DNA of 64,000 bases from an uncultured Poribacteria bacterium (GCA_958296135.2 CATQHZ020000001.1:3808001-3872000), one strand, 5' to 3'; counted from the stretch's first letter, positions 1 to 14,475 are shown. Made by a program: numbers and translations. Notes: a model not told the origin generated them from the letters alone.

Positions 1-613
1 GATTAGCCGCGCGCATGCGAGCAAGCGGTATGCTATCCCTTACGACATCCACCCGCGCCTCACCGAAATCGGGTGGGAGTTTATTGATGACATCACTTGG
101 GTGAAACCGGATTATGCCGCGAAGAACCGGAACGGCGGTTTCTTTCAACACCGCAAACCGCTCGGTTACAAGGCGAATTCTGTCACCGAATCGGTTATGG
201 TTTATCGGAAGAAAACGGACAAACTGCTCGATTGGAACATGCGGCAATATGACGCGGAAACAATTGAAGCCAGCAGAATCTTGGGCGATTATGACAAGAC
301 AAATGTCTGGCAAATCAATCCCTCAGCGGACAAAGTGCATCCGGCCGTCTTTCCGGTTGAGTTGGCGGTGCGCGTTATTCAGTTCTACTCCTTCAAAGGC
401 GATTTGGTGTTCGACCCGTTTGGCGGAAGCGGCACCGTTGGCCAGGCGGCAATGGCCCTGGAAAGGTATTTTCTCCTCTGTGAAAAAGAGGCAGAATACG
501 TGGAACGCGCGATGCAACGGCTTGACGCATCCCTATTCTCCCCCGAACAGCCGCCAAGGAGCCTCTCCTTGGCAGAACTTAACACTGAAGAACGGAGAAA
601 TCACAAACCGTGA
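1..613 (+). CDS. N4/N6 DNA methyltransferase (beta class), 5' end outside the window; probable partner of the CfrBI-like endonuclease
   Basis: HPAVFP and VFDPFGGSGT SAM-binding motifs. The stop overlaps the GTG start of the downstream endonuclease (GTGA). Confidence 0.85.
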   Translation, partial: ISRAHASKRYAIPYDIHPRLTEIGWEFIDDITWVKPDYAAKNRNGGFFQHRKPLGYKANSVTESVMVYRKKTDKLLDWNMRQYDAETIEASRILGDYDKTNVWQINPSADKVHPAVFPVELAVRVIQFYSFKGDLVFDPFGGSGTVGQAAMALERYFLLCEKEAEYVERAMQRLDASLFSPEQPPRSLSLAELNTEERRNHKP

Positions 614-1599
614 CTGTTACTGGAGTCGTCATTAAGAATATCATTCGCAAACTCATCGCGGGTGAAGATTACCGGTCGGAAGTCATTACCCTAATCGATG
701 CCGAGTTCTTGCAATACGTTGTGGATTTTTTCAAACGCATTGCGCACGCCAAGTTGGAGAATCAAGCCGTAACCGCCGATTGGTATAGAAAGGAACTCCT
801 CTGCGATGAGTCGCTGACCAAGGAGGAGGTAGCCGTCCATTCGGGCATGAACATGAAAACTATCTCCAATATGTATAACTCGGCGAGCAAGAAAATCGTG
901 CTAGAAGCATCGTTGGAACACTACGATGCGCTTTACAACGCGATTCATAACCTCACCGAGCAGGACGACGTTGACATAACGTTAACCATAAAACTTCGTC
1001 ACGTAAGCGTTGACCTGAGTCTTAACGAAAGTTTGGTTGTCATCAACACGCTGGCAGTCAAACGTTCGGCACTTCGCGGCGGATTATGGAGCACTGCCGG
1101 GAAACAGGTTGAAAAACCTCTGATGGCAACGCTTTGTGCCCTTTTCCAAGTGCCGAGAAGGTTCTTCGATCAGAGCAATCTTCCGGATTCATTGCGTGAA
1201 GCGGATTTTTATCTTCTCGATGAGACCGGCACGCGGCACCGCTGTGAGGTGAAACTCATGGGAAAAGGTAACCCTGAAAGTGCAGACGTGGTTTACGCGC
1301 GCGGCAGCCGTGTGTTGGTTGCCAACAAACTCTCTGACGCAAACAAAGCGCAGATGGCATCAAATGACATCCTTTGGGTCGAACTCCAAGCAATCCACGG
1401 TTATCAGCGATTTGAGCAGGTGCTCAAGGCACTTTCTATTCCGTGTCGCCCGTTTACCGGAGAACTGCAACCAGCGTTGGATAAAATTTTGCCTGTCATA
1501 CTCTCCGATGACGTGCAGGCCTCCGTCACGCCAGAGGCAATTCTACAAGAACAGGAGCAAGGGCTGAATCACCTTTCAGAACTATTGGTTAAATTGTAA
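610..1599 (+). CDS. Type II restriction endonuclease, CfrBI family
   Basis: KLIAGEDYR...FFKRI..AKL...DWY N-terminus, plus ALRGGLWSTAGKQVEKPL and CEVKLMGKGNPESAD motifs recalled for RE_CfrBI. Adjacent to a methyltransferase. Confidence 0.75.
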   Translation: MTVTGVVIKNIIRKLIAGEDYRSEVITLIDAEFLQYVVDFFKRIAHAKLENQAVTADWYRKELLCDESLTKEEVAVHSGMNMKTISNMYNSASKKIVLEASLEHYDALYNAIHNLTEQDDVDITLTIKLRHVSVDLSLNESLVVINTLAVKRSALRGGLWSTAGKQVEKPLMATLCALFQVPRRFFDQSNLPDSLREADFYLLDETGTRHRCEVKLMGKGNPESADVVYARGSRVLVANKLSDANKAQMASNDILWVELQAIHGYQRFEQVLKALSIPCRPFTGELQPALDKILPVILSDDVQASVTPEAILQEQEQGLNHLSELLVKL

Positions 1600-2312
1600 T
1601 GAAAATCTTAGGTATTGACACCGCAACCCCTATCGGAAGCGTCGCCTTAATTGATGGCGAAAGCCTCATCGCAGAGCATACGCTCAATATCGTGCAAGCG
1701 CACTCCTCGCGACTCATGCCTGCGATTGACACCGTCCTCAAATGGGGCGACATCACCGCGGCGGAACTCGACGGATGCGCCGTCGGCATCGGACCGGGTT
1801 CCTTCACCGGCATCCGCATCGGCATCGCAACAATCAAATCGCTCTGTTACGCACTTGATAAACCGATTGTCGGCGTTTCAACGCTAGAATCCATCGCCTA
1901 TAACCTGCGCTGGACTGAAGGCATCATCTGCCCAATACTCGATGCACGACGGAACGAGATTTACGGGGCTATCTTCCGCGGTGGAGACAAATGGCAACGC
2001 CTCAGCGATGATTGCTGTGTAACGGTTGCGTCATTTCTTGCGGAATTTAGCAAGACTAGAAGGGTTCTCCTATCGGAAATCGAGACCGGGGGGACGCACC
2101 TACTGCCGTGCACCTTCGTTGGCGATGGACTGGAGATTTATGCGGATGCGGTGCAGGCGGTACTAGGCGAAGAAATCCGCTTCGCCGATGCAATTTTCAA
2201 TGTGCCGCGCGGTGCGACAGTCGCACACCTCGGCGCGCAACGCTTACAAAATGGGGACAGCGATAGTTATTGGACTTTAGTGCCGAACTATGTTAGAATA
2301 GGGCTCTATTGA
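1599..2312 (+). CDS. tsaB: tRNA threonylcarbamoyladenosine biosynthesis protein TsaB
   Basis: ILGIDTAT, HSSRLMPAID, GPGSFTGIRIG, DARRNEIY and PNYVR motifs. Confidence 0.95.
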   Translation: MKILGIDTATPIGSVALIDGESLIAEHTLNIVQAHSSRLMPAIDTVLKWGDITAAELDGCAVGIGPGSFTGIRIGIATIKSLCYALDKPIVGVSTLESIAYNLRWTEGIICPILDARRNEIYGAIFRGGDKWQRLSDDCCVTVASFLAEFSKTRRVLLSEIETGGTHLLPCTFVGDGLEIYADAVQAVLGEEIRFADAIFNVPRGATVAHLGAQRLQNGDSDSYWTLVPNYVRIGLY

Positions 2313-5300
2313 GGAGGGAAACTACCTTGTTTAAGGATTATCTCAGAGAAATAGAGCAGAAATGGCACAGCGGCCGCGCAACCGAACATACCTATCGCTC
2401 GAATCTGGAGCGGTTGCTCACCGATTTTCTGAAATCCGATGAGTATACCGTAATCAACGAACCGACGCACCTCGGGCGCAACGCACCGGACATGCTCATC
2501 CTCAAGAATCAGCAACCAGTCGGCTACATTGAGGCGAAAAATATTGGGGCTAACCTTGACAAAGTTGAGGAAACAGAGCAGCTCCAACGCTACCGAAACG
2601 GGTTGGAAAACCTGATTCTGACAGATTACCTCGAATTCCGCCTGTATCGCCAGAGCAAGAAGCACCAAAGCGTTCGGCTTGGTGATGTCTCGTCGCAGCG
2701 GCACTTTCAGTATCTTCCTGAAAACGAATCCGACATCAGGGATTTGCTGAACGCCTTCATCTACGGACATCAACCTGTCGTCGTCATCAGTCCGGAAGAT
2801 TTGGCGGCGCGGCTGAGTCAGAAGGCACTTCTCCTTCGCTACGGGATAAGCCGTATCCTAGAGAACGACAACGCCTCAAAACTCGGCGAACTCTTCGCGG
2901 CGTTCAAAGAGCATCTGGTTGAAGGGCTATCTCCATCGCAATTCGCGGACATGATAGCCCAAACGATGACTTACGGCCTGTTCGCCGCCCGCGCCGAACA
3001 CAAAAGCGGGCCGTTTACGCGAGAGAGTGCCGTGAAAGGTTTCTTGAAAACCAGTCCCTTCCTGCACGCAATTTTCACGCGTGCCGATAAGGGGCTCCAG
3101 GAAGATGCAAACCTGCTTTCACAAGAAATCCTGCTTGACGCGGATCTGAATTGGATTGTGGATGACTTGGTTGCATTCCTTGAGGCAAGCGATATCCATA
3201 ACCTCCTTAAGGGTGTTGCCCAAGGCGATGCCATTGTTCATTTTTATGAGACATTCTTAAGGGCATATAATCCGAACGAAAAGAAGTTGCGCGGGGTATA
3301 CTACACGCCGGATGCGGTTGTCTCTTACATTGTGCGCAGCGTCCACCAGATTTTGCAGAGAGACTTCGGTATTCCGAATGGGCTCGCCGCCACCGAAACC
3401 GTCGCGCAACACAGCGGCGCAGCGCGAACCCAACCGCGGGTAACAATTCTCGACCCGGCCACCGGCACCGGCACCTTCTTACGGCACGTCGTTGACAAGG
3501 TGCATGATGTCTACATAACCGCGCAAGGCAATTCTCCGCAAACCTGGCCCGATTACGTTCGGAAACATCTCCTGCCGCGCCTCTTCGGTTTTGAACTGAT
3601 GGTAGCACCGTATGCGATGTGTCACCTCAGTTTAACGCAGCACCTTGTCAGAATGGGTTACCACTTTACGGAAGACGAACGGCTGCATGTTTATCTCACC
3701 AATACGCTGGACGAACGTGACTTGCAGCTCTATCTCGCTGAGGAGAACGCAATCGCGAAAGAGGGCGATGCCGCCATCAAAATTAAGAAGTTATATCAAC
3801 TGATGGTTATCCTTGGCAACCCGCCTTATGCTGTCCACTCGGCAAACAAAAGCGATTGGATTCACAACCTGCTGCGCGGTTTCGATGGTAGCGACACTGA
3901 GACAGCGAACTACTTCCAAGTTGATGGGCAGCCACTCAACGAGAGAAACCCGAAGATGCTCAACGATGACTACGTCAAATTTTTCCGATTCGCGCAGTGG
4001 CATATTGAACGGACAGGTTATGGCGTGCTCGGCCTCATTACCAACCACGGCTACCTTGACAATCTCACCTTCCGGGGAATGCGGGAAAGTTTGATGCGCA
4101 CCTTTGACGAAATTTACCTGCTGAACCTGCACGGGAATCTGAGAAAAAAAGAGAAAACTCCCGACGGTGGGAAAGACGAGAACGTGTTTGATATCATGCA
4201 AGGAGTTGCAATCGGCTTCTTTGTCAAAAAGGAAGGAGACGCGAACCTACCCTGCCGTGTCTTTTACGCCGACAGCTGGGGAAACCGCGCAAGCAAAATG
4301 AATTGGTTGGCGGAAAACGATATCCACACCACACCGTGGCGAGAAATTTCGCCTACGTCGCCGCACTACTTCTTTGTGCCTAAGGATGCAACCTACGTGG
4401 AAGAATACGAAAGCGGCATAAGCGTTAAGGAAATTTTCCAGGTCAATTCCGTAAGTATCTCTAGCGGCAGAGACAAATTAACGATTCACTGGACGCGAGA
4501 AGACGTACTACAAGTGGTTCGTCAATTCCGCTCGCTGTCGGTAGACGAGGCCTGTCAACGATTCAGTCTCGCCGAAGGGACAGTAGCACTTATACGAGCG
4601 GATCTGGACGAGCCCCCAGAGAGCCCTGGTACCGCCGAGCATATTGTGCCAATTTGCTATCGGCCGTTTGATACGCGCTTTACGTATTACACGGGACGCT
4701 CTGGCGGCTTTCACGACAGGCCGCGACGTGATGTAATGCAGCATTTCCTCAATGCTTCAAATGTGGGGTTGGTTACGGCTCGGTACAATCCACAAGCGTC
4801 TGGGTGGTGTCATGCCTTCGTCTCTCACAATATGCTAGCCATCTCCAACCAATACTACTTTTTTCCGCTCTACCGTTACCCAGATGGCGGAGAAGAACCT
4901 GAACCGAATTTTGCGGAAGGATTTGCCGAGCAACTCGCCCAAAATTTGGGGTTGCGTTTTATCGGATGCGGCTGTGGCGATTTGCACGAAACCTTTGGCG
5001 CGACAGATGTCCTACACTACCTCTATGCCGTGCTCTATGCTCCCAGTTATCGGGAACGCTACGCAGAATGCCTCAAAACTGATTTTCCGCGTATCGCGTT
5101 CACACATCAGCGAAACTTTTTCCAAGTGTTGTGTAAATTTGGCAAACGGTTAGTCAATTGCCATATCCCAACTTCAGAGGGCGAGGTTCACAAAAGCGAA
5201 CCTCGCTTCGATGTGGTGGGCAGCAACGTTGTCGGGCAAATTCGCTATGATGCATCAGTACCCCAGGTCTGGATAAATAAGCGTCAGTATTTTGAGGGAG

Positions 5301-5497
5301 TCATTCCGGAAGTGTGGCAATTTCAGATTGGCGCATATTCCCCTGCGCAAAATTGGCTGAAAGTTCGGAAGGGACGCATCTTGCAACCGGAGGATATTCG
5401 GCACTATCAGTCCATCTGCCAAGCCCTGCGTGAAACCCTATCGGTGATGGCAGAAATCGATAAGGAAATTGAACGGCATGGGGGATGGCCCTTGTAG
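2309..5497 (+). CDS. Fused restriction-modification enzyme (type IIG/ISP-like: nuclease, N6-adenine methyltransferase, C-terminal specificity domain)
   Basis: N-terminal PD...IEAK nuclease motif, GVYYTP, ILDPATGTGTF, GNPPY, and a type-ISP-like C-terminus (YRPFD, DFPRI, VWQFQIGAY..NWLK.RKGR). Confidence 0.85.
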   Translation: MRRETTLFKDYLREIEQKWHSGRATEHTYRSNLERLLTDFLKSDEYTVINEPTHLGRNAPDMLILKNQQPVGYIEAKNIGANLDKVEETEQLQRYRNGLENLILTDYLEFRLYRQSKKHQSVRLGDVSSQRHFQYLPENESDIRDLLNAFIYGHQPVVVISPEDLAARLSQKALLLRYGISRILENDNASKLGELFAAFKEHLVEGLSPSQFADMIAQTMTYGLFAARAEHKSGPFTRESAVKGFLKTSPFLHAIFTRADKGLQEDANLLSQEILLDADLNWIVDDLVAFLEASDIHNLLKGVAQGDAIVHFYETFLRAYNPNEKKLRGVYYTPDAVVSYIVRSVHQILQRDFGIPNGLAATETVAQHSGAARTQPRVTILDPATGTGTFLRHVVDKVHDVYITAQGNSPQTWPDYVRKHLLPRLFGFELMVAPYAMCHLSLTQHLVRMGYHFTEDERLHVYLTNTLDERDLQLYLAEENAIAKEGDAAIKIKKLYQLMVILGNPPYAVHSANKSDWIHNLLRGFDGSDTETANYFQVDGQPLNERNPKMLNDDYVKFFRFAQWHIERTGYGVLGLITNHGYLDNLTFRGMRESLMRTFDEIYLLNLHGNLRKKEKTPDGGKDENVFDIMQGVAIGFFVKKEGDANLPCRVFYADSWGNRASKMNWLAENDIHTTPWREISPTSPHYFFVPKDATYVEEYESGISVKEIFQVNSVSISSGRDKLTIHWTREDVLQVVRQFRSLSVDEACQRFSLAEGTVALIRADLDEPPESPGTAEHIVPICYRPFDTRFTYYTGRSGGFHDRPRRDVMQHFLNASNVGLVTARYNPQASGWCHAFVSHNMLAISNQYYFFPLYRYPDGGEEPEPNFAEGFAEQLAQNLGLRFIGCGCGDLHETFGATDVLHYLYAVLYAPSYRERYAECLKTDFPRIAFTHQRNFFQVLCKFGKRLVNCHIPTSEGEVHKSEPRFDVVGSNVVGQIRYDASVPQVWINKRQYFEGVIPEVWQFQIGAYSPAQNWLKVRKGRILQPEDIRHYQSICQALRETLSVMAEIDKEIERHGGWPL

Positions 5498-9174: not shown

Positions 9175-9936
9175 ATGGCAGCTCAAACATCCAAAATCGA
9201 GTGGACAGAATCAACTTGGAACCCCGTCCGCGGATGCACGCGGGTCTCAGAAGGGTGCCGGTTCTGTTATGCTGAACGGATCGCGTCGCGATTTTCTGAC
9301 GAAGGCATGGCATACGAGGGCCTCGCCGAAAACACCAAAGCCGGTCCGCGCTGGACACAGGAAGTCAGGATTGTCCGAGAAGCGTTCAAGGCACCCCTGA
9401 AATGGAGAAAACCGCGCCGAATTTTCGTCAATTCCATGAGCGACATCTTCCATGAAAAGATCGAATTATCGACGATTCAGGAGCTCTTCGATGTCATGAA
9501 GAAAGCGGATTGGCACCAATTCCAGCTCTTGACGAAGCGAGCAGAACGGCTATTGGCATGCAACGCCGCCTTGCCGTGGCCGCCGAACGTCTGGATGGGA
9601 GTGAGCGTGGAAGATGAGCAAGTTATGCATCGGATAGATGCGCTGCGGCAAACCGATGCGCGCATCAAATTCCTCTCACTTGAACCGCTCCTCGGTCCGC
9701 TTCCGAATTTAGACTTAAGCGGGATAGACTGGGTTATCGTCGGCGGAGAATCCGGTCCGGGTGCACGTCCGATGGATAAAGCATGGGTGATTGCCATCCG
9801 AGAGCGGTGTGCGGAGGCGGGTGTGCCGTTTTTCTTTAAGCAGTGGGGTGGCGTGCGTAAATCGAAAACGGGGCGCGAGTTGGATGGAAAATTTTATGAC
9901 GAGATGCCGCACACGCCGCTATTGCAAATGAGATAG
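9175..9936 (+). CDS. DUF5131 (phage Gp37/Gp68-like, three-Cys motif) protein
   Basis: IEWT..TWNPVRGC.RVSEGCRFCYAE, FVNSMSDIFH, FLSLEPLLG, DWVIVGGESG and FFFKQWGG motifs. Confidence 0.92.
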   Translation: MAAQTSKIEWTESTWNPVRGCTRVSEGCRFCYAERIASRFSDEGMAYEGLAENTKAGPRWTQEVRIVREAFKAPLKWRKPRRIFVNSMSDIFHEKIELSTIQELFDVMKKADWHQFQLLTKRAERLLACNAALPWPPNVWMGVSVEDEQVMHRIDALRQTDARIKFLSLEPLLGPLPNLDLSGIDWVIVGGESGPGARPMDKAWVIAIRERCAEAGVPFFFKQWGGVRKSKTGRELDGKFYDEMPHTPLLQMR

Positions 9937-9956: not shown

Positions 9957-11579
9957 TCATGGAATCGCCCGTATCTGGCGGATTTCGGAAACCTCAGACA
10001 CCGGCGGCGAGATCGGTTCATGGAATGCCATCTTCGCGGCAATTCTCCCGTAACTGTAACCATCACGGCGGGCTAACAATCGTAAATCCGCAGTGGTGCC
10101 GCTTTTTCGCGAATCTTTCACATCCGGTGCGAAATATTTGACACGGCATCTACGCGGCTTCCCTTTGGGCGTTTTATCAAAGCAGTTAATAACCCCGCGC
10201 CATTTCGTCCCATCTTGCGTTGTGAGCTCAACATGGTCCAACCGCCGGAACCCGTTGCTTTCCGCCCGTTTTTCATTCGGGAGGAAGAAGCCCGGGGCCT
10301 TCATCTTGAAAGTCTTGCGCAGATTATCACGCCGTCCATATCCCTCCGCTTGAATCACGTCAACTTGGAGAGAACTTGGTTGTTTCGGGAGACACGCAAC
10401 CGCGGCCGCGTCGTAGTAATGCGTCTTTGGCAAGCCTGCGAGGTTTCGGTTATGTGCTGTTTTTCCGCCAGTCCCGCTGAGAACGGGCAACTTCATCGCC
10501 TTGAGTATTTCAAAGAGTTTCCAGCGAATCGTGTTCACTGCAGCAGCATCAGAAAGCCCTTTCTTTGACTTGCTCACAGCGGATTTGACCTTTTTCGCAA
10601 ACTTTTCACCGCATTTCGCTTCCAACGCGTCACCGACAAGATTGCCCTTTTTCGCGTTGCACGGACGACACGCCATCGTGAGATTGTCGGGGCGACTGGA
10701 ACCGCCTTTCGCTTTAGGGAGGATGTGTTCAACCTCAAGGCGAACATTTTTGTCCCCACAATAGGCGCACTTTCGTCCGGTGAGTTCCAAGAGGTATTCG
10801 CGAATTTCGCGCCCGTGAAGTGTGCCTTGTTGATATTGAATCCCATGAATGTTGGGCTTGTCCATCAACTGCATATCAAACTTCACCGTTTCAATCGCGA
10901 GCCGTGTTATCGGAGAGACTTTGCGGTATCGCCGCGTCCACGTCTCTATATTGAAAACACGGGACATGAGGCTCGGTGCAACCCATCCGTTATCCGCGCG
11001 CTTTTGATGAGCAACACGGACGCGCTTCCAACGCTTCTTTTGGCGTTGATTCGTTTTCGTTTTCGGCAGACGTTCCCACCGATACCGCGGATCTCGCAAT
11101 TGTGCCCACGAGACGCGATTGAAGTGATTCTGCGTTTGACTCGTATCCGTGCCTTCTGGGGCCTTGGCGCGTTGATACGTCCATCCCTCGTCAGTCAGCA
11201 CCGGCACTTTTCGTCCGCGGTTTGCCCAACGCGCAGGACGATACCGTAGATTCCGAGTGCGGCGACCGCGGCGGAATCCAGACCGGTTAGTCAACGCTTT
11301 CTTTATCTGCCTTCCACGATGGTGGAGTTCCGCGGCATAGATGATATCGCCAGTCTCCGATGTGATGGCGATGCCCGATGTTTTTGAACCCGGATCCCAA
11401 CTCAGGGTGTAGTTCCCGGTAACAATCTCATCGGCAGGCACCGCTTTTTTCAGGATGATTGTAAACGGATGTCGGTTCCAAACAGCCGCCTCACCACGCT
11501 TCAATAAACGTCGCGCTATTGCCGGGTGGCACGGTTCCAATACGTTCTTGTTTCTATCAATCACAAAAACTTTTGACAT
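9957..11579 (-). CDS. iscB: IscB RNA-guided endonuclease (540 aa), CRISPR-associated, with a REC-position insertion
   Basis: PLMP-like N-terminus (VFVID...VLEPCHPAIARRLLK...PFTIIL), RuvC-I WDPGSK, Arg-rich bridge helix (RRGRRTRNLRYRPAR), GWVAPSL, RuvC-II IETVKFD, HNH (CAYC...EHILPKAKGGS...NL..AC..CN..K) and RuvC-III THYYDA. GGAGAGG ribosome-binding site precedes the ATG at 11579. Confidence 0.95.
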   Translation of the reverse strand: MSKVFVIDRNKNVLEPCHPAIARRLLKRGEAAVWNRHPFTIILKKAVPADEIVTGNYTLSWDPGSKTSGIAITSETGDIIYAAELHHRGRQIKKALTNRSGFRRGRRTRNLRYRPARWANRGRKVPVLTDEGWTYQRAKAPEGTDTSQTQNHFNRVSWAQLRDPRYRWERLPKTKTNQRQKKRWKRVRVAHQKRADNGWVAPSLMSRVFNIETWTRRYRKVSPITRLAIETVKFDMQLMDKPNIHGIQYQQGTLHGREIREYLLELTGRKCAYCGDKNVRLEVEHILPKAKGGSSRPDNLTMACRPCNAKKGNLVGDALEAKCGEKFAKKVKSAVSKSKKGLSDAAAVNTIRWKLFEILKAMKLPVLSGTGGKTAHNRNLAGLPKTHYYDAAAVACLPKQPSSLQVDVIQAEGYGRRDNLRKTFKMKAPGFFLPNEKRAESNGFRRLDHVELTTQDGTKWRGVINCFDKTPKGKPRRCRVKYFAPDVKDSRKSGTTADLRLLARRDGYSYGRIAAKMAFHEPISPPVSEVSEIRQIRAIP

Positions 11580-11589
11580 AATGTCCTCT

Positions 11590-11860
11590 CCTGCTACTGC
11601 AGAAGGTAATGTGAGCCTCGCCAATGTTATCTCTGCTTAATTCAGGGTTGACTGCCTCATCTTGACAAGAGACTGTTTACAGAGCCCCCACAGTGCTCCC
11701 GACTGGCTCCATCGGCGATCCGACGTATCTGGAGGTGTGATAACAGAGATAACGTAGTTAGTGAAAACTTAAGCTAGATACCGATTCAATTAGGCAACAA
11801 GGATTCCACCCCTTGTTCCCCGCTCCGCAAGCGGAGCTAACATGGTTTCATTGCAACTTT
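11590..11860 (-). ncRNA. omegaRNA (HEARO-like) scaffold with a 5' anti-repeat (tracrRNA-like)
   Basis: Minus-strand motifs in HEARO order: ACTACGTT...ACACC...CCAGT...CTCTG TAAACAG...CAGT...AACATTGGCGAGG...TTACC. A perfect 10-bp long-range stem joins 11744-11753 and 11626-11635. Directly upstream of iscB. Confidence 0.85.
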
Positions 11861-11940
11861 GCTGTCAACCTCCCGCAACATTTGCGTTATTGGAGGTAGA
11901 CAGCAAGTCCTTACGCCGCAAGCACGGATGCACACGGCGT
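11859..11940 (-). other. Two hairpins between the array and the omegaRNA (leader or processing element)
   Basis: TTGCTGTC-ACCTCC/GGAGGT-GACAGCAA stem at 11859-11906 and ACGCCG/CGGCGT stem at 11913-11940. Confidence 0.6.
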
Positions 11941-11950
11941 GATGCCGAGC

Positions 11951-13260
11951 GTTGCAACTTTACCATGCTCAAGCGGTAACTGAAGGATTTAAGCCGACTC
12001 CGCGCAGCCGGAAACGCGTTGCAACTTTACCATGCTCAAGCGGTAACGGTTCCATCTCGATGCGAGTTTGCGTCGTGCGGCACTGGTTGCAACTTTACCA
12101 TGCTCAAGCGGTAACGCTGCGCTTTGCGGTTTAGCTCTCCCCACGCGATTGTTGCAACTTTACCATGCTCAAGCGGTAACTCGTAAGGATAGGCGAGTGC
12201 CTTGTCAATGAGGCGTTCGTTGCAACTTTACCATGCTCAAGCGGTAACTTTACCTAAACTATAATGCGTAAAATTGACAATCTCTAGTTGCAACTTTACC
12301 ATGCTCAAGCGGTAACGCGTGTCGTAAGATTCTGCCGCCGCGTAGATGGAATGCGTTGCAACTTTACCATGCTCAAGCGGTAACCTTCATCGTAAGCCTC
12401 TTCATCGTAGGTGAAGAATTGTTGCAACTTTACCATGCTCAAGCGGTAACCGCTTGATGAACCTGCTGTTGATGAACCCCAGCAGGGCAGGGCGGCGTTG
12501 CAACTTTACCATGCTCAAGCGGTAACCAGCATCTTGAAAAACAAGGTGCGGGTGCTGCGAGCGTTGCAACTTTACCATGCTCAAGCGGTAACAGGTTTTT
12601 ACGTCTACTTGCGCCGGCCCGCCAGCCGGCGCGGTTGCAACTTTACCATGCTCAAGCGGTAACTGAACACGAAGGGCGGGGTGACGCGCATGGGCGTGAG
12701 TTGCAACTTTACCATGCTCAAGCGGTAACCTCTGTATAACCTATGTTAATCCCGTCAAATCTAGTTGCAACTTTACCATGCTCAAGCGGTAACCTAAAAT
12801 ATCCATTACATCTTTAGGCATTGCCAGCCTCGTTGCAACTTTACCATGCTCAAGCGGTAACTTAAGGTCTTCGTGAAGCCCTCCCTGCCCGTCCAGGTTG
12901 CAACTTTACCATGCTCAAGCGGTAACCATTGCAGACGAGCATTGATGTGAAGACCGGACGACTGTTGCAACTTTACCATGCTCAAGCGGTAACGTCATAG
13001 ATGGCTTCTAGCATAGGCGTGAGACGCGGTGTTGCAACTTTACCATGCTCAAGCGGTAACGCGCAGCGTCAGTCTCGGTAGCCGGTGCGGGTGCCGGTGT
13101 TGCAACTTTACCATGCTCAAGCGGTAACTTTTGGGGTTGATTTGCGCTCATGGCGTTGCCGACAGGTTGCAACTTTACCATGCACAAGCGGTAACAAATA
13201 CTGACAGCGATACGACTTCCCGCCAGAACCGTTTCAACTTTACCATGCTCAGGTGGTAAC
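11951..13260 (-). CRISPR. CRISPR array: 20 repeats of 30 nt (transcribed GTTACCGCTTGAGCATGGTAAAGTTGCAAC) and 19 unique spacers of 34-46 nt
   Basis: Repeats start at 11951, 12018, 12086, 12151, 12219, 12287, 12355, 12421, 12497, 12563, 12634, 12700, 12764, 12832, 12897, 12964, 13031, 13099, 13166 (1 mismatch) and 13231 (3 mismatches). Confidence 0.98.
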
Positions 13261-13275
13261 CGGCAACTATGTTAA

Positions 13276-13304
13276 AGTATACCACGCTTTCTTCTGAATT
13301 GCAA
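13276..13304 (-). promoter_or_regulatory. sigma70 promoter driving the array, omegaRNA and iscB
   Basis: Minus strand TTGCAA-17 nt-TATACT with an extended -10 TG, 15 nt upstream of the first repeat. Confidence 0.7.
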
Positions 13305-13378: not shown

Positions 13379-14302
13379 TCATACAAGTTTGTTCAAATCG
13401 ACAGGTAACCCGACAGATTTCATTTCCTGAGCCAGTCTCAGTTTCCATCCATCCTCGCTCTTCATTGGAATATAAAGGAGTCCATCAAGATCGGAGGGGT
13501 TTTCTAGTTCCCCTTTAACGAGCAAACAGACTCTTCCGCGTTCCAACTTTCCTTGAAAATAGCCGAGTTCTAGGATGACGTTTTGACGAGCCCGAAGTTT
13601 GAGATCCTCATCTGCTTCATTCCTTAGGGCACCAACATCATCGGGAGTCAGCAAAGCAATAGCAAACCTAACGTTGTTTGCCAATTGCTCAAGCTTCTCA
13701 ATAATCGTTAGACCGGAGTTGGGTTGGTTTTCAAGGATGATTTCCTTGAATCCTAAATCCCTGAGGAACAAAACGACAGCGTTTTTCGCCGCATCGTCCC
13801 GTCCATGCACGATAAACACTGAAGTGTCCGCAGGAGTGTCTGAAGGTAGATTACGCAGATTTATCTTTCCCACCGTTTCAGATCTGGCTTCCACCGTAGA
13901 ACCTTCTTGTGCTATCTGTAACCGTGTTAACTGTTCCGGATCCAAAACCGATATTTCGCCATCATCAACAGAATCCACCTCTTTTGCCTTCGGGTGATAG
14001 GAGAGGTAGGAACGTTCCCCTTTTCTTTCTTCGATGATAGCGAGCCATATACCGCCGCAACTCCCTTCGCAGCACAGCGTTTTTTGTCTGTCGCAGAGTT
14101 TGATTTCAAGTTGATGCGAAGCCCCCCAGGGACAAGCAATGTCAATAAATTCGTGAGGTTGTGCCGGCGTGGAAAGAAGGACTTTCCATGCACCACCTCG
14201 TTGCAAGATACCATGCACCTTCTTACCTGTCGTATCTACGATAAGAAGGTCTTTCCCATCAAATGCCCCTGAAGGAAGCATTCCATTATAAGGTCTATAC
14301 AT
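13379..14302 (-). CDS. TIR-like domain (predicted nucleotide-binding, CBASS/Pycsar-effector-like) protein with an unknown N-terminal domain
   Basis: VFIVHGRD...TIIEKLE...FAIALLTPDD...RARQNVILELGYF...PSDLDG motifs. GGAG ribosome-binding site before the ATG at 14302. Confidence 0.85.
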   Translation of the reverse strand: MYRPYNGMLPSGAFDGKDLLIVDTTGKKVHGILQRGGAWKVLLSTPAQPHEFIDIACPWGASHQLEIKLCDRQKTLCCEGSCGGIWLAIIEERKGERSYLSYHPKAKEVDSVDDGEISVLDPEQLTRLQIAQEGSTVEARSETVGKINLRNLPSDTPADTSVFIVHGRDDAAKNAVVLFLRDLGFKEIILENQPNSGLTIIEKLEQLANNVRFAIALLTPDDVGALRNEADEDLKLRARQNVILELGYFQGKLERGRVCLLVKGELENPSDLDGLLYIPMKSEDGWKLRLAQEMKSVGLPVDLNKLV

Positions 14303-14475
14303 TATTTCTCCTTCCACCCGCAGTTCCAGAAAACCCGCACCAGCATCGTTACATTTCAAGGGAAACCGTTAAGTTCTCTCATACCATCGGTGCATGAGCG
14401 CAGCGTTACCATAACCCGACACCGCAATGGCGATGCGAAGCCGGTAACTGAACGTACCTGCATCCTTTTCTTTTA

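Follow-up and report, generated by a model that had tools for sequence, protein, structure and literature searches.

Where the array, the trans-activating CRISPR RNA (tracrRNA) and the link to spacer adaptation arose on the way from IscB to Cas9 is an open question, and a locus in the genome of an uncultured Poribacteria bacterium raises it in a concrete form: how is an iscB gene that stands behind a long CRISPR array, with no adaptation genes at its side, supplied with spacers? The locus occupies positions 9957-13304, minus strand, of a stretch of 64,000 nucleotides (nt) (GCA_958296135.2 CATQHZ020000001.1:3808001-3872000), the whole of which is called the window here; the genome holding it (G000) is of the sponge-symbiont type. 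Judged from its sequence, the locus holds a real and conserved CRISPR-associated IscB that is very probably functional. We read it as a chromosomal, domesticated CasIscB defence module of the DelIscB kind, to which a type I-B system supplies spacers in trans, and give this reading a probability of roughly 0.8. What would be new beyond the known kind, as we infer from sequence comparison, is a back-to-front array captured from type I-B, which the I-B genes would go on serving.

Read from 13304 to 9957, the minus strand presents in order, and all co-oriented, a promoter-like site, the CRISPR array, an omegaRNA and iscB (coordinates in Table 1), and the listing of open reading frames (ORFs) in the window has none between these parts. 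The repeat sequence is GTTACCGCTTGAGCATGGTAAAGTTGCAAC, and 18 of its 20 copies are identical. The two variants, R1 with three mismatches and R2 with one, sit at the promoter end, away from iscB. All 19 spacers are distinct, with lengths of 34-46 nt, and the non-coding gap between the last repeat and the iscB start measures 371 nt. The four-part co-oriented layout proposed in an earlier reading of the bare sequence (the original prediction) is correct in all checked details, its 18 identical repeats and 19 differing spacers included. Contigs from four sequencing runs of one sample, which is probably the source, hold the same spacers with zero array variants and are uninformative on expression and heterogeneity.

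The arrangement is not peculiar to this genome. Homologues of the IscB protein numbered 2382 matches among 8000 scored candidates, with a first band at 55-83% identity (480-673 aa) and a second near 50% (about 455-490 aa). With one genome taken per species, 22 of the 176 genomes of the phylum carry a homologue at E <= 1e-20; 18 of those places with 5-kb flanks, and two Poribacteria loci from a named genome collection, constitute our locus set. A k-mer scan found an array ending 300-540 nt upstream of iscB in 12 of the 20 loci. By eye, two repeats were seen at L118 and one each at L119 and L120, with none at L122 or at the more distant L125-L128. When the arrays were re-scanned with mismatches permitted, they contained 2-28 repeats, and 13-28 in five relatives, so that the long array of the original prediction is found more widely than in the window. 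The clade's repeats are of a single family (GTYNNCGCTTGRGCATGKT...GTTGCAAC); most spacers measure 35-38 nt, within a usual range of 34-41 nt.

A maximum-likelihood tree of 70 locus-derived proteins unites the 17 Poribacteria rows in one clade (SH-aLRT 98), of which 13 have at least three repeats directly upstream, three have one or two, and one lacks repeats altogether. The tree nests this clade within a wider set of IscBs from Chloroflexota, Cyanobacteria and others, for which the upstream array scan found no array. It is a quick tree without bootstraps, in which five very long branches stem from poor automatic ORF extraction, and it includes neither Cas9 nor any published CasIscB. The phylogenetic check proposed earlier has thus given a well-supported array-bearing clade; the suggested independent transition agrees with the nesting among array-less IscBs, as far as a tree without Cas9 can speak for independence from Cas9.

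The sigma-70-like promoter lies at the array end distal to iscB, where it would fire into the degenerate first repeat and is directed through the array's 20 repeats and then the omegaRNA and iscB; between promoter and iscB, the minus strand yielded no terminator-like site. The promoter scan returned 6 promoter-like sites versus 3.0 +/- 1.7 in shuffles, which is weak evidence taken alone. By eye, an identical promoter adjoins the first repeat in the closest relative, L111, and promoter-like hexamers adjoin it in L002 and L124. Since the scan found no sigma-70-type site ahead of the anti-repeat, a separate promoter for the tracr part is unsupported. An extended -10-like box, TGGTAAAGT, is present inside every window repeat (e.g. 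R20, 11964-11956) and would place transcript starts at the first bases of every spacer, in the manner of type II-C repeats. As a feature of the clade this box was rejected, because by eye it is confined to the repeats of the window and L111 and is absent from the other ten.

The array and the nuclease seem to be joined through the 5' end of the omegaRNA, which forms a split anti-repeat. The first segment, GTTGCAATGAAACCATGTTAG at 11857-11837, accounts for pairing with repeat positions 12-19 and 23-30, and the second, CGGTATC at 11783-11777, for positions 1-7. Two hairpins, inserted at 11837-11822 and at 11821-11793, part the segments. The repeat and the tracr region of the window cofold at -53 to -54 kcal/mol with 22 intermolecular pairs. 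At every locus, the last repeat is followed by a conserved stretch of ~95 nt with a strong hairpin and then by the complement of that locus's own repeat. Cofolding at 12 loci gave 16-27 intermolecular repeat/anti-repeat pairs each, with double-sided compensatory changes at repeat positions 3, 4, 5, 6, 10, 11, 12, 18 and 27. Thus position 3 pairs as T:A at 8 loci and C:G at 3, position 4 as A:T at 8 and T:A at 3, position 11 as G:C at 7 and T:A at 2, position 12 as A:T at 5 and G:C at 3, and position 18 as G:C at 5, T:A at 3 and C:G at 1. These pairs derive from energy minimisation, which is prone to finding pairs, and the position-by-position pattern is nonetheless consistent. In an RNAduplex matrix the cognate duplex is the best of its row in 5 of the 12 loci; RNAduplex cannot bridge split anti-repeats and under-scores the window, L111, L113 and L001, so cofolding was used instead. 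L002, with the most divergent repeat, reaches -38.1 kcal/mol with its own anti-repeat and no better than -30.7 with any other.

Downstream of the anti-repeat, the omegaRNA core is conserved across 14 loci, and 12 of its 23 predicted pairs are compensatory on both sides. In the HEARO model one strand closes the first helix beside the guide, and it is with this strand that the repeat's 5' end pairs. Therefore, the spacer is predicted to sit where IscB holds its guide, that is, 5' of the scaffold, which is the guide position in both IscB and Cas9. Because the 5' end of the omegaRNA is an anti-repeat, the reading of the locus as a CRISPR-IscB with a tracr-like omegaRNA holds, and the co-variation of repeat and anti-repeat bears out that part of the original prediction as well. 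The layout is kept across the clade with co-varying repeats and anti-repeats and with turnover of spacers; array, leader and anti-repeat stay conserved in relatives whose protein is down to about 50% identical. Another fold open to the last repeat is in cis, onto the anti-repeat of its own transcript, with the leader stretch forming the loop, and in the folding model the omegaRNA-adjacent spacer would then be a natural single guide.

The protein itself is intact. An alternative frame of 555 aa starts from TTG at 11624; the 540-aa start is favoured by its ribosome-binding site (RBS), GGAGAGG at 11591-11585, and by homologues, whose N-termini read MSKV. Pfam assigns RRXRR (1.5e-55) and HNH (1.9e-12), and the domain order is a PLMP-like N-terminus, RuvC-I (D62), the bridge helix (RRGRRTR at 103), an insertion at the REC site, RuvC-II (E230), HNH (H285, N308), RuvC-III (H387, D390) and a C-terminal region interacting with the target-adjacent motif (TAM). 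The six catalytic residues are invariant in 69 aligned homologues, which upholds the earlier description of an intact IscB with its RuvC and HNH residues kept. Residues 2-45 align with the N-terminal domain of OgeuIscB-type chains and with TbaIscB residues 497-540, although the PLMP-type motif reads VLEPCHPA in place of PLMP. The best solved relatives are TbaIscB (4e-37) and OgeuIscB (1e-21), with II-D Cas9s weaker yet significant. An AlphaFold model has a mean predicted local distance difference test score (pLDDT) of 77.5, and its top Foldseek matches are IscB structures (8csz, E 8e-24).

Two regions of the protein set it apart. The REC-site insertion comprises 83 aa (about residues 115-197), modelled with mixed confidence as a beta-hairpin followed by a small alpha/beta unit, the pLDDT being below 50 at 104-123, 138-148 and 190-197, which include parts of the insertion. 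Elsewhere this insertion measures 94-156 aa in other first-band homologues, 29-37 aa in the 50% band and ~11 aa in cyanobacterial relatives. The C-terminal TAM-interaction region is divergent and unlike that of array-less relatives. According to a 2025 study (PMC13180657), IscBs active in human cells share REC-like inserts at the REC site, and REC grafts lengthen the effective guide.

It is conceivable, though very improbable, that the gene is a still-mobile IscB of the IS200/IS605 type lying beside an orphan CRISPR array, with a flank-derived guide that serves transposon homing. A tnpB gene does stand 1.1 kb past the end of iscB, bringing a second RNA-guided nuclease family into the same island, and spacer 54 of the I-B array of G069 (L152) has a 20-nt exact match in the iscB of another genome, G030 (L122 5514-5533, E 1e-4), a slight indication that CRISPR systems target IscB elements too and treat some as invaders. 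However, the 5.19-Mb genome has one full copy of iscB, no Y1 transposase domain occurs among the flanking ORFs (transposon ends were not searched for), array, leader and anti-repeat are conserved with the protein as described above, and the usual guide position is taken by the anti-repeat. The single copy and the absence of a Y1 transposase among the neighbours support the earlier description of this IscB as domesticated.

The window corresponds to C1:3.808-3.872 Mb and has neither cas1 nor cas2 within its 64 kb, as had been stated for the locus, and none adjoins iscB in the relatives. The genome has two cas1-cas2 pairs, at C1:3.646 Mb and 4.395 Mb. The nearest cas1, ~0.16 Mb from the window, is part of a type I-D locus at 3.65 Mb (cas10d, csc2, csc1, cas3', cas6, a cas4-cas1 fusion and 38 repeats; NCBIfam typing). 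A type I-B locus at 4.39 Mb, 0.58 Mb from the IscB locus, is complete (cas6, cas7, cas5, cas3, cas4, cas1b and cas2; NCBIfam) and has an array of 72 repeats of 30 nt with spacers of 33-41 nt. The IscB and I-B arrays are alike in format, with 30-nt repeats and the same range of spacer length.

A link to the type I-B module is suggested by the leader-like element between the last repeat and the anti-repeat, which holds a hairpin (11907-11857; CTTGCTGTCTACCTCC...GGGAGGTTGACAGCAAAG). Read on the plus strand, the element aligns with the leaders of I-B arrays from seven genomes over the block GCCGTCAACCTCCCAGCAA...GGAGGTCGACAGCAA, and at several loci the IscB and I-B leaders meet the repeat via a similar ...ATAGC junction. 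In a 51-column hairpin block, all 42 IscB-by-I-B pairs have 26-42 identical columns, against a mean of 12.9 and a maximum of 24 in shuffles, and the leader-like orientation outscores the opposite one in 32 of the 42. A composite leader motif has two sites in the whole genome, one at window position 11864 and one in the I-B leader, and is absent from the I-D leader; as the motif was drawn after seeing both sites, its informative part is that no third site exists, the arms alone occurring 24 and 21 times.

A second line of evidence comes from G069, where spacer 16 (37 nt) of the IscB array is also present in the genome's own I-B array of >130 repeats, with 36/37 nt in agreement and identical ends. 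Relative to the two leaders the copies run the same way, and hence in opposite directions relative to transcription. The leader homology, the shared spacer and the common format lead us therefore to read the IscB array as I-B-derived and transcribed towards its leader. The original prediction had called the system self-contained; given the homologous leader and the shared spacer, adaptation most likely depends on the type I-B module elsewhere in the genome.

The polarity of the arrays also bears on where spacers enter. Of 13 arrays, 7 carry their most divergent repeat or repeats at the promoter end, and in arrays of at least four repeats the most divergent one never adjoins the omegaRNA. In L116 the four omegaRNA-proximal repeats carry a common one-base variant, as would be expected if new repeats were copied from the proximal repeat; L114 and L117 do not fit this simple proximal-copy picture. 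The near-identical loci L114-L117, similar in both proteins and flanks, have no spacers in common beyond the last 18 nt of the far-end spacers, which are the same in L115 and L116. Two spacers of L002 derive from one protospacer, displaced by 1 nt, and L113 has one exact spacer duplicate.

These observations can be assembled into a tentative scheme. In type I adaptation, the end of the spacer on the side of the protospacer-adjacent motif (PAM) faces the leader-side repeat. New spacers would not be made by the IscB locus; its 93-nt element would be an I-B-like leader in reverse orientation and the site of spacer integration, at which type I-B Cas1-Cas2-Cas4 would insert spacers in trans next to the omegaRNA-proximal repeat. 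The array would then be transcribed backwards, towards its leader, so that the I-B PAM end of a spacer becomes the 3' end of the guide beside the repeat, on the side where IscB and Cas9 need their TAM. Since the array is read towards the leader, the predicted TAM is the reverse complement of the I-B PAM. The ribonucleoprotein would presumably cut double-stranded DNA that matches the 3' part of the spacer beside this TAM.

As to how the arrangement arose, we put at about even odds that an I-B leader-repeat unit was captured in inverted orientation ahead of an omegaRNA, whose 5' end became the anti-repeat, and that I-B still feeds the array. Inversion would turn type I spacers, with their PAM at the 5' side, into IscB guides with a TAM at the 3' side. 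It would also bring the scaffold and the most recently added spacer together in cis, giving a ready single guide in a phylum seemingly without RNase III. We know of no described case in which a reversed array converts 5'-PAM spacers into 3'-TAM guides, although our access to the literature was limited.

A number of results weigh against our reading, and they are gathered in this and the following three paragraphs. The distance from hairpin to repeat is about 50 nt in the IscB loci versus about 98 nt in I-B; in the I-B leader the array promoter lies between hairpin and repeat, and that stretch is missing from the IscB version. IscB and I-B hairpin blocks from the same genome are not systematically the most alike. 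The sharing of a spacer is a single case in one relative, with none common to the IscB and I-B arrays in G000, G065, G077 and G152, and none of the window spacers occurs in the I-B or I-D arrays of G000. IscB arrays also persist without I-B: cas1 is missing from the 95%-complete, single-contig genome of G150, whose IscB array has nine repeats, a fragment of cas1 is all that G173 holds, and the sole cas1 of G160 is an I-D type cas4-cas1. These three arrays are short (4-9 repeats), and all arrays of at least 13 repeats are in genomes with I-B-type cas1, the genomes behind this pattern being few and related; co-occurrence with cas1 as such is without power, because 132 of the 176 phylum genomes carry that gene.

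Some of these points would suit another explanation, in which the array is real and used and adaptation is performed by the I-D Cas4-Cas1/Cas2, or spacers arise by rare recombination or duplication, in which case the shared hairpin would bind a common regulator and not be an integration leader. The arrays in G160 and G150 agree with this, and so does the differing distance between hairpin and repeat; the palindromic arms (GTCGACCTCC...GGAGGTCGAC) moreover resemble a dimer-binding operator and lie in I-B leaders just upstream of the array promoter. We nevertheless consider it unlikely. The spacer shared in G069, with its identical ends, sits in the I-B and not the I-D array; the composite motif is confined to the IscB locus and the I-B leader, with no copy in the I-D leader or elsewhere; most comparisons favour the leader-like orientation; the decay of repeats points to the hairpin end; and the 1-nt-shifted spacers of L002 look like two integrase events rather than a duplication.

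Targets are the second difficulty. Searched against its own genome, the window's array gave chance-level matches only (best 20/21 nt, E 0.008), and there was no match among 50,697 phage and 72,556 plasmid records. Against the 176 phylum genomes, with two candidates per genome scored, it gave repeat-driven matches to related arrays and two chance-level short ones; the L002 array found its own genome only. Spacer stretches, one each from the window, L002 and L113, had 0 matches in IMG/VR. Hence the spacer check proposed earlier has produced no protospacer for the 19 window spacers in their own genome, the phage and plasmid records or the phylum genomes, nor for the one searched in IMG/VR, and no TAM was derived. 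The I-B spacers of G000 and G069 likewise gave no protospacer usable for the PAM in the sequences searched. In L124, the second IscB array of G065, the adjacent spacers 7 and 8 match other contigs of their own metagenome-assembled genome (MAG), one at 36/37 nt and one at 36/36 nt, with targets at G065:C68:27767-27804 and C182:9924-9959, one of which, in an ordinary chromosomal context, is homologous to a gene for a cohesin/dockerin/Por-tail surface protein. Their TAM-side flanks differ (CCT and GCG), and both 5' flanks end in CCG. The matches could represent self-targeting or targeting between strains, and their survival may be due to the lack of a working TAM or to a strain mixture in the MAG.

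The third difficulty concerns the RNA. The Rfam RF02033 (HEARO) match of the window barely passes, at 83.4 bits versus a gathering score of 83 (E 2e-16). When the window and 13 relatives' loci were tested, only the window and L113 reached that score, for which reason the omegaRNA of the clade is taken as a divergent HEARO branch. The RNase III models PF14622 and PF00636 each matched in 0 of 21 Poribacteria genomes, compared with matches in 8 of 14 control genomes, and TIGR02191 gave in G000 a 20-bit match to the dsRNA-binding part only (G000:C1:1007174-1007398); missing matches to domain models are not proof of absence. A Cas9-like maturation step is therefore without a candidate enzyme. Biogenesis of CRISPR RNAs (crRNAs) in type II-C can proceed without RNase III. 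If the lack is real, the Poribacteria phylum lacks a near-universal bacterial enzyme. A rather improbable alternative follows this line, namely that the array is a fossil and that only the omegaRNA-adjacent spacer is used, folded in cis as a single guide. The cis fold of last repeat, leader loop and anti-repeat would allow it, no RNase III is detectable for releasing crRNAs in trans, relatives with one or two repeats exist, and DelIscB has been shown to work with such a single non-coding RNA (ncRNA) transcript (PMC12660989). Against it stand the 18 identical repeats maintained in the window array, the arrays of 13-28 repeats in five relatives, the differing spacers at the near-identical loci L114-L117 (apart from the partial match in L115/L116), and the co-variation of repeat with anti-repeat along its whole length.

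The surroundings of the locus agree with the defence island that had been proposed, as it is flanked by a type II restriction enzyme, a type IIG restriction-methylase, a candidate PDC-M41 pair and a TIR protein (Table 1). A spacer of the IscB array in G077 has a 19-nt exact match in the DUF5131 gene of the window (9333-9351).

Table 1. Features of the IscB locus and of its neighbourhood, in window coordinates.
Feature	Position	Strand	Details
Sigma-70-like promoter	13276..13304	-	TTGCAA, 17 nt, TATACT; TG ahead of the -10 box
CRISPR array	11951..13260	-	20 repeats of 30 nt, 19 unique spacers
Leader-like element, 93 nt	11858..11950	-	between last repeat and anti-repeat
Split anti-repeat	11777..11857	-	from cofolding and compensatory changes
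omegaRNA (HEARO) scaffold	11606..11841	-	Rfam RF02033; reaches up to the iscB RBS
iscB, 540 aa	9957..11579	-	ATG 11579 to stop 9957
CfrBI-like type II restriction enzyme	610-1599		flank of IscB locus
Type IIG/ISP restriction-methylase	2309-5497		flank of IscB locus
TnpB, 417 aa	7568-8821	+	OrfB_IS605 and Cas12f-like TNB domain
Truncated PDC-M41A, 100 aa	8861-9163	+	candidate defence pair PDC-M41
Full PDC-M41B / DUF5131	9175-9936	+	
TIR protein, PDC-S35/Pycsar-effector type	13379-14359	-	upstream of array

Two relatives' loci have features of their own. At L133 (G032:C394, 1867-5143), an array-less IscB of 430 aa with an ordinary type of omegaRNA has immediately behind it, the ends overlapping, a 577-aa cas4/cas1-like ORF and a 96-aa ORF, and the contig ends at 5313; an insertion sequence may have landed in a CRISPR-cas locus, or this IscB may be linked to adaptation genes. 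Upstream of it, at about 1260-1500, a cobalamin-riboswitch-like sequence was seen by eye. L119 has a group II intron domain match at 1267-1343, near its IscB locus.

The clade offers natural intermediates for the question posed at the outset, with an omegaRNA-borne anti-repeat, arrays of 1-28 repeats, a graded REC-site insertion and evidence of a link to type I-B. If the inverted-capture scenario is true, then together with the stepwise insertion (11, 29, 83 and up to 156 aa) it would provide a living model of the passage from a transposon nuclease to a type II-like adaptive system. If the TAM is indeed the reverse complement of the I-B PAM, this would account for the ability of a new effector to make use of an adaptation system already in place. 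The 540-aa nuclease, with native multi-spacer arrays and spacers of 34-46 nt, is also a candidate compact editor alongside the engineered DelIscB.

CRISPR-associated IscBs, the metagenomic DelIscB among them, were reportedly first described by Altae-Tran et al. in 2021. A commentary on that work says that a few IscBs are associated with arrays (PMC11610941), and a review states that besides Cas9 several much smaller IscB branches turned CRISPR-associated independently (PMC10734277). "CasIscBs" is the name of a group tested in PMC13180657. DelIscB has been engineered; its ncRNA has both a repeat and an anti-repeat, and it cleaves DNA with a TAM of NAC and a 16-nt guide, while the study leaves undecided whether the ncRNA is processed into crRNA and tracrRNA and does not discuss the origin of spacers (PMC12660989). 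The novelty claimed in the original prediction has consequently to be given up in this respect, CRISPR-associated IscBs being already in print and DelIscB characterised. A full-text literature search, with the supplementary list of Altae-Tran et al. 2021 outside its scope, returned nothing on the Poribacteria clade or on the spacer origin of CasIscBs.

DelIscB is like the window's locus in the order of its ncRNA, which is direct repeat, ~100-nt loop, anti-repeat with a small inserted hairpin, and omegaRNA core. By eye, in the sequence given in its supplement, the DelIscB core starts ...AGACTAAGTTC...ACTACGTTAT, where the window has TAGCTTAAGTTTTCACTAACTACGTTAT, and the loop ends GGTGGTTGACAG, similar to GGGAGGTTGACAG in the window. 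The bridge-helix motif RYRPARW is common to both proteins; DelIscB is 457 aa long, versus 540 aa for the window's IscB. DelIscB is absent from the best 120 homologues of the window IscB. Among 32 loci from JGI metagenomes, three further IscBs bear arrays; their repeats are unrelated to those of the Poribacteria clade, and their anti-repeat follows 6-12 nt after the last repeat, so that they have no leader-like element.

The OMEGA systems of the OgeuIscB type, represented in Rfam by HEARO, resemble the window's IscB locus in protein architecture, fold and omegaRNA core. They differ in being mobile elements with a single flank-derived guide, whereas this locus has an anti-repeat in the guide position, guides from an array, a single-copy gene and no TnpA. 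With type II Cas9 (II-D Cas9d and II-C) the locus has in common a duplex like that of crRNA and tracrRNA, a guide 5' of the repeat, RuvC and HNH, and a growing insertion at the REC site. It keeps, unlike Cas9, a PLMP-type N-terminus and a full-size omegaRNA, has an insertion of only 83 aa and no REC lobe, and is without an adjacent cas1, cas2 or csn2.

The closest parallel in terms of adaptation is with effectors that borrow the Cas1-Cas2 of another system, such as type III effectors with type I arrays, type IV and CRISPR-associated transposons. Like these, the IscB locus has no cas1 or cas2, with a co-resident type I system as the likely supplier. It would differ from them in having its borrowed leader at the 3' end of the transcript, with the array read antisense to the donor system.

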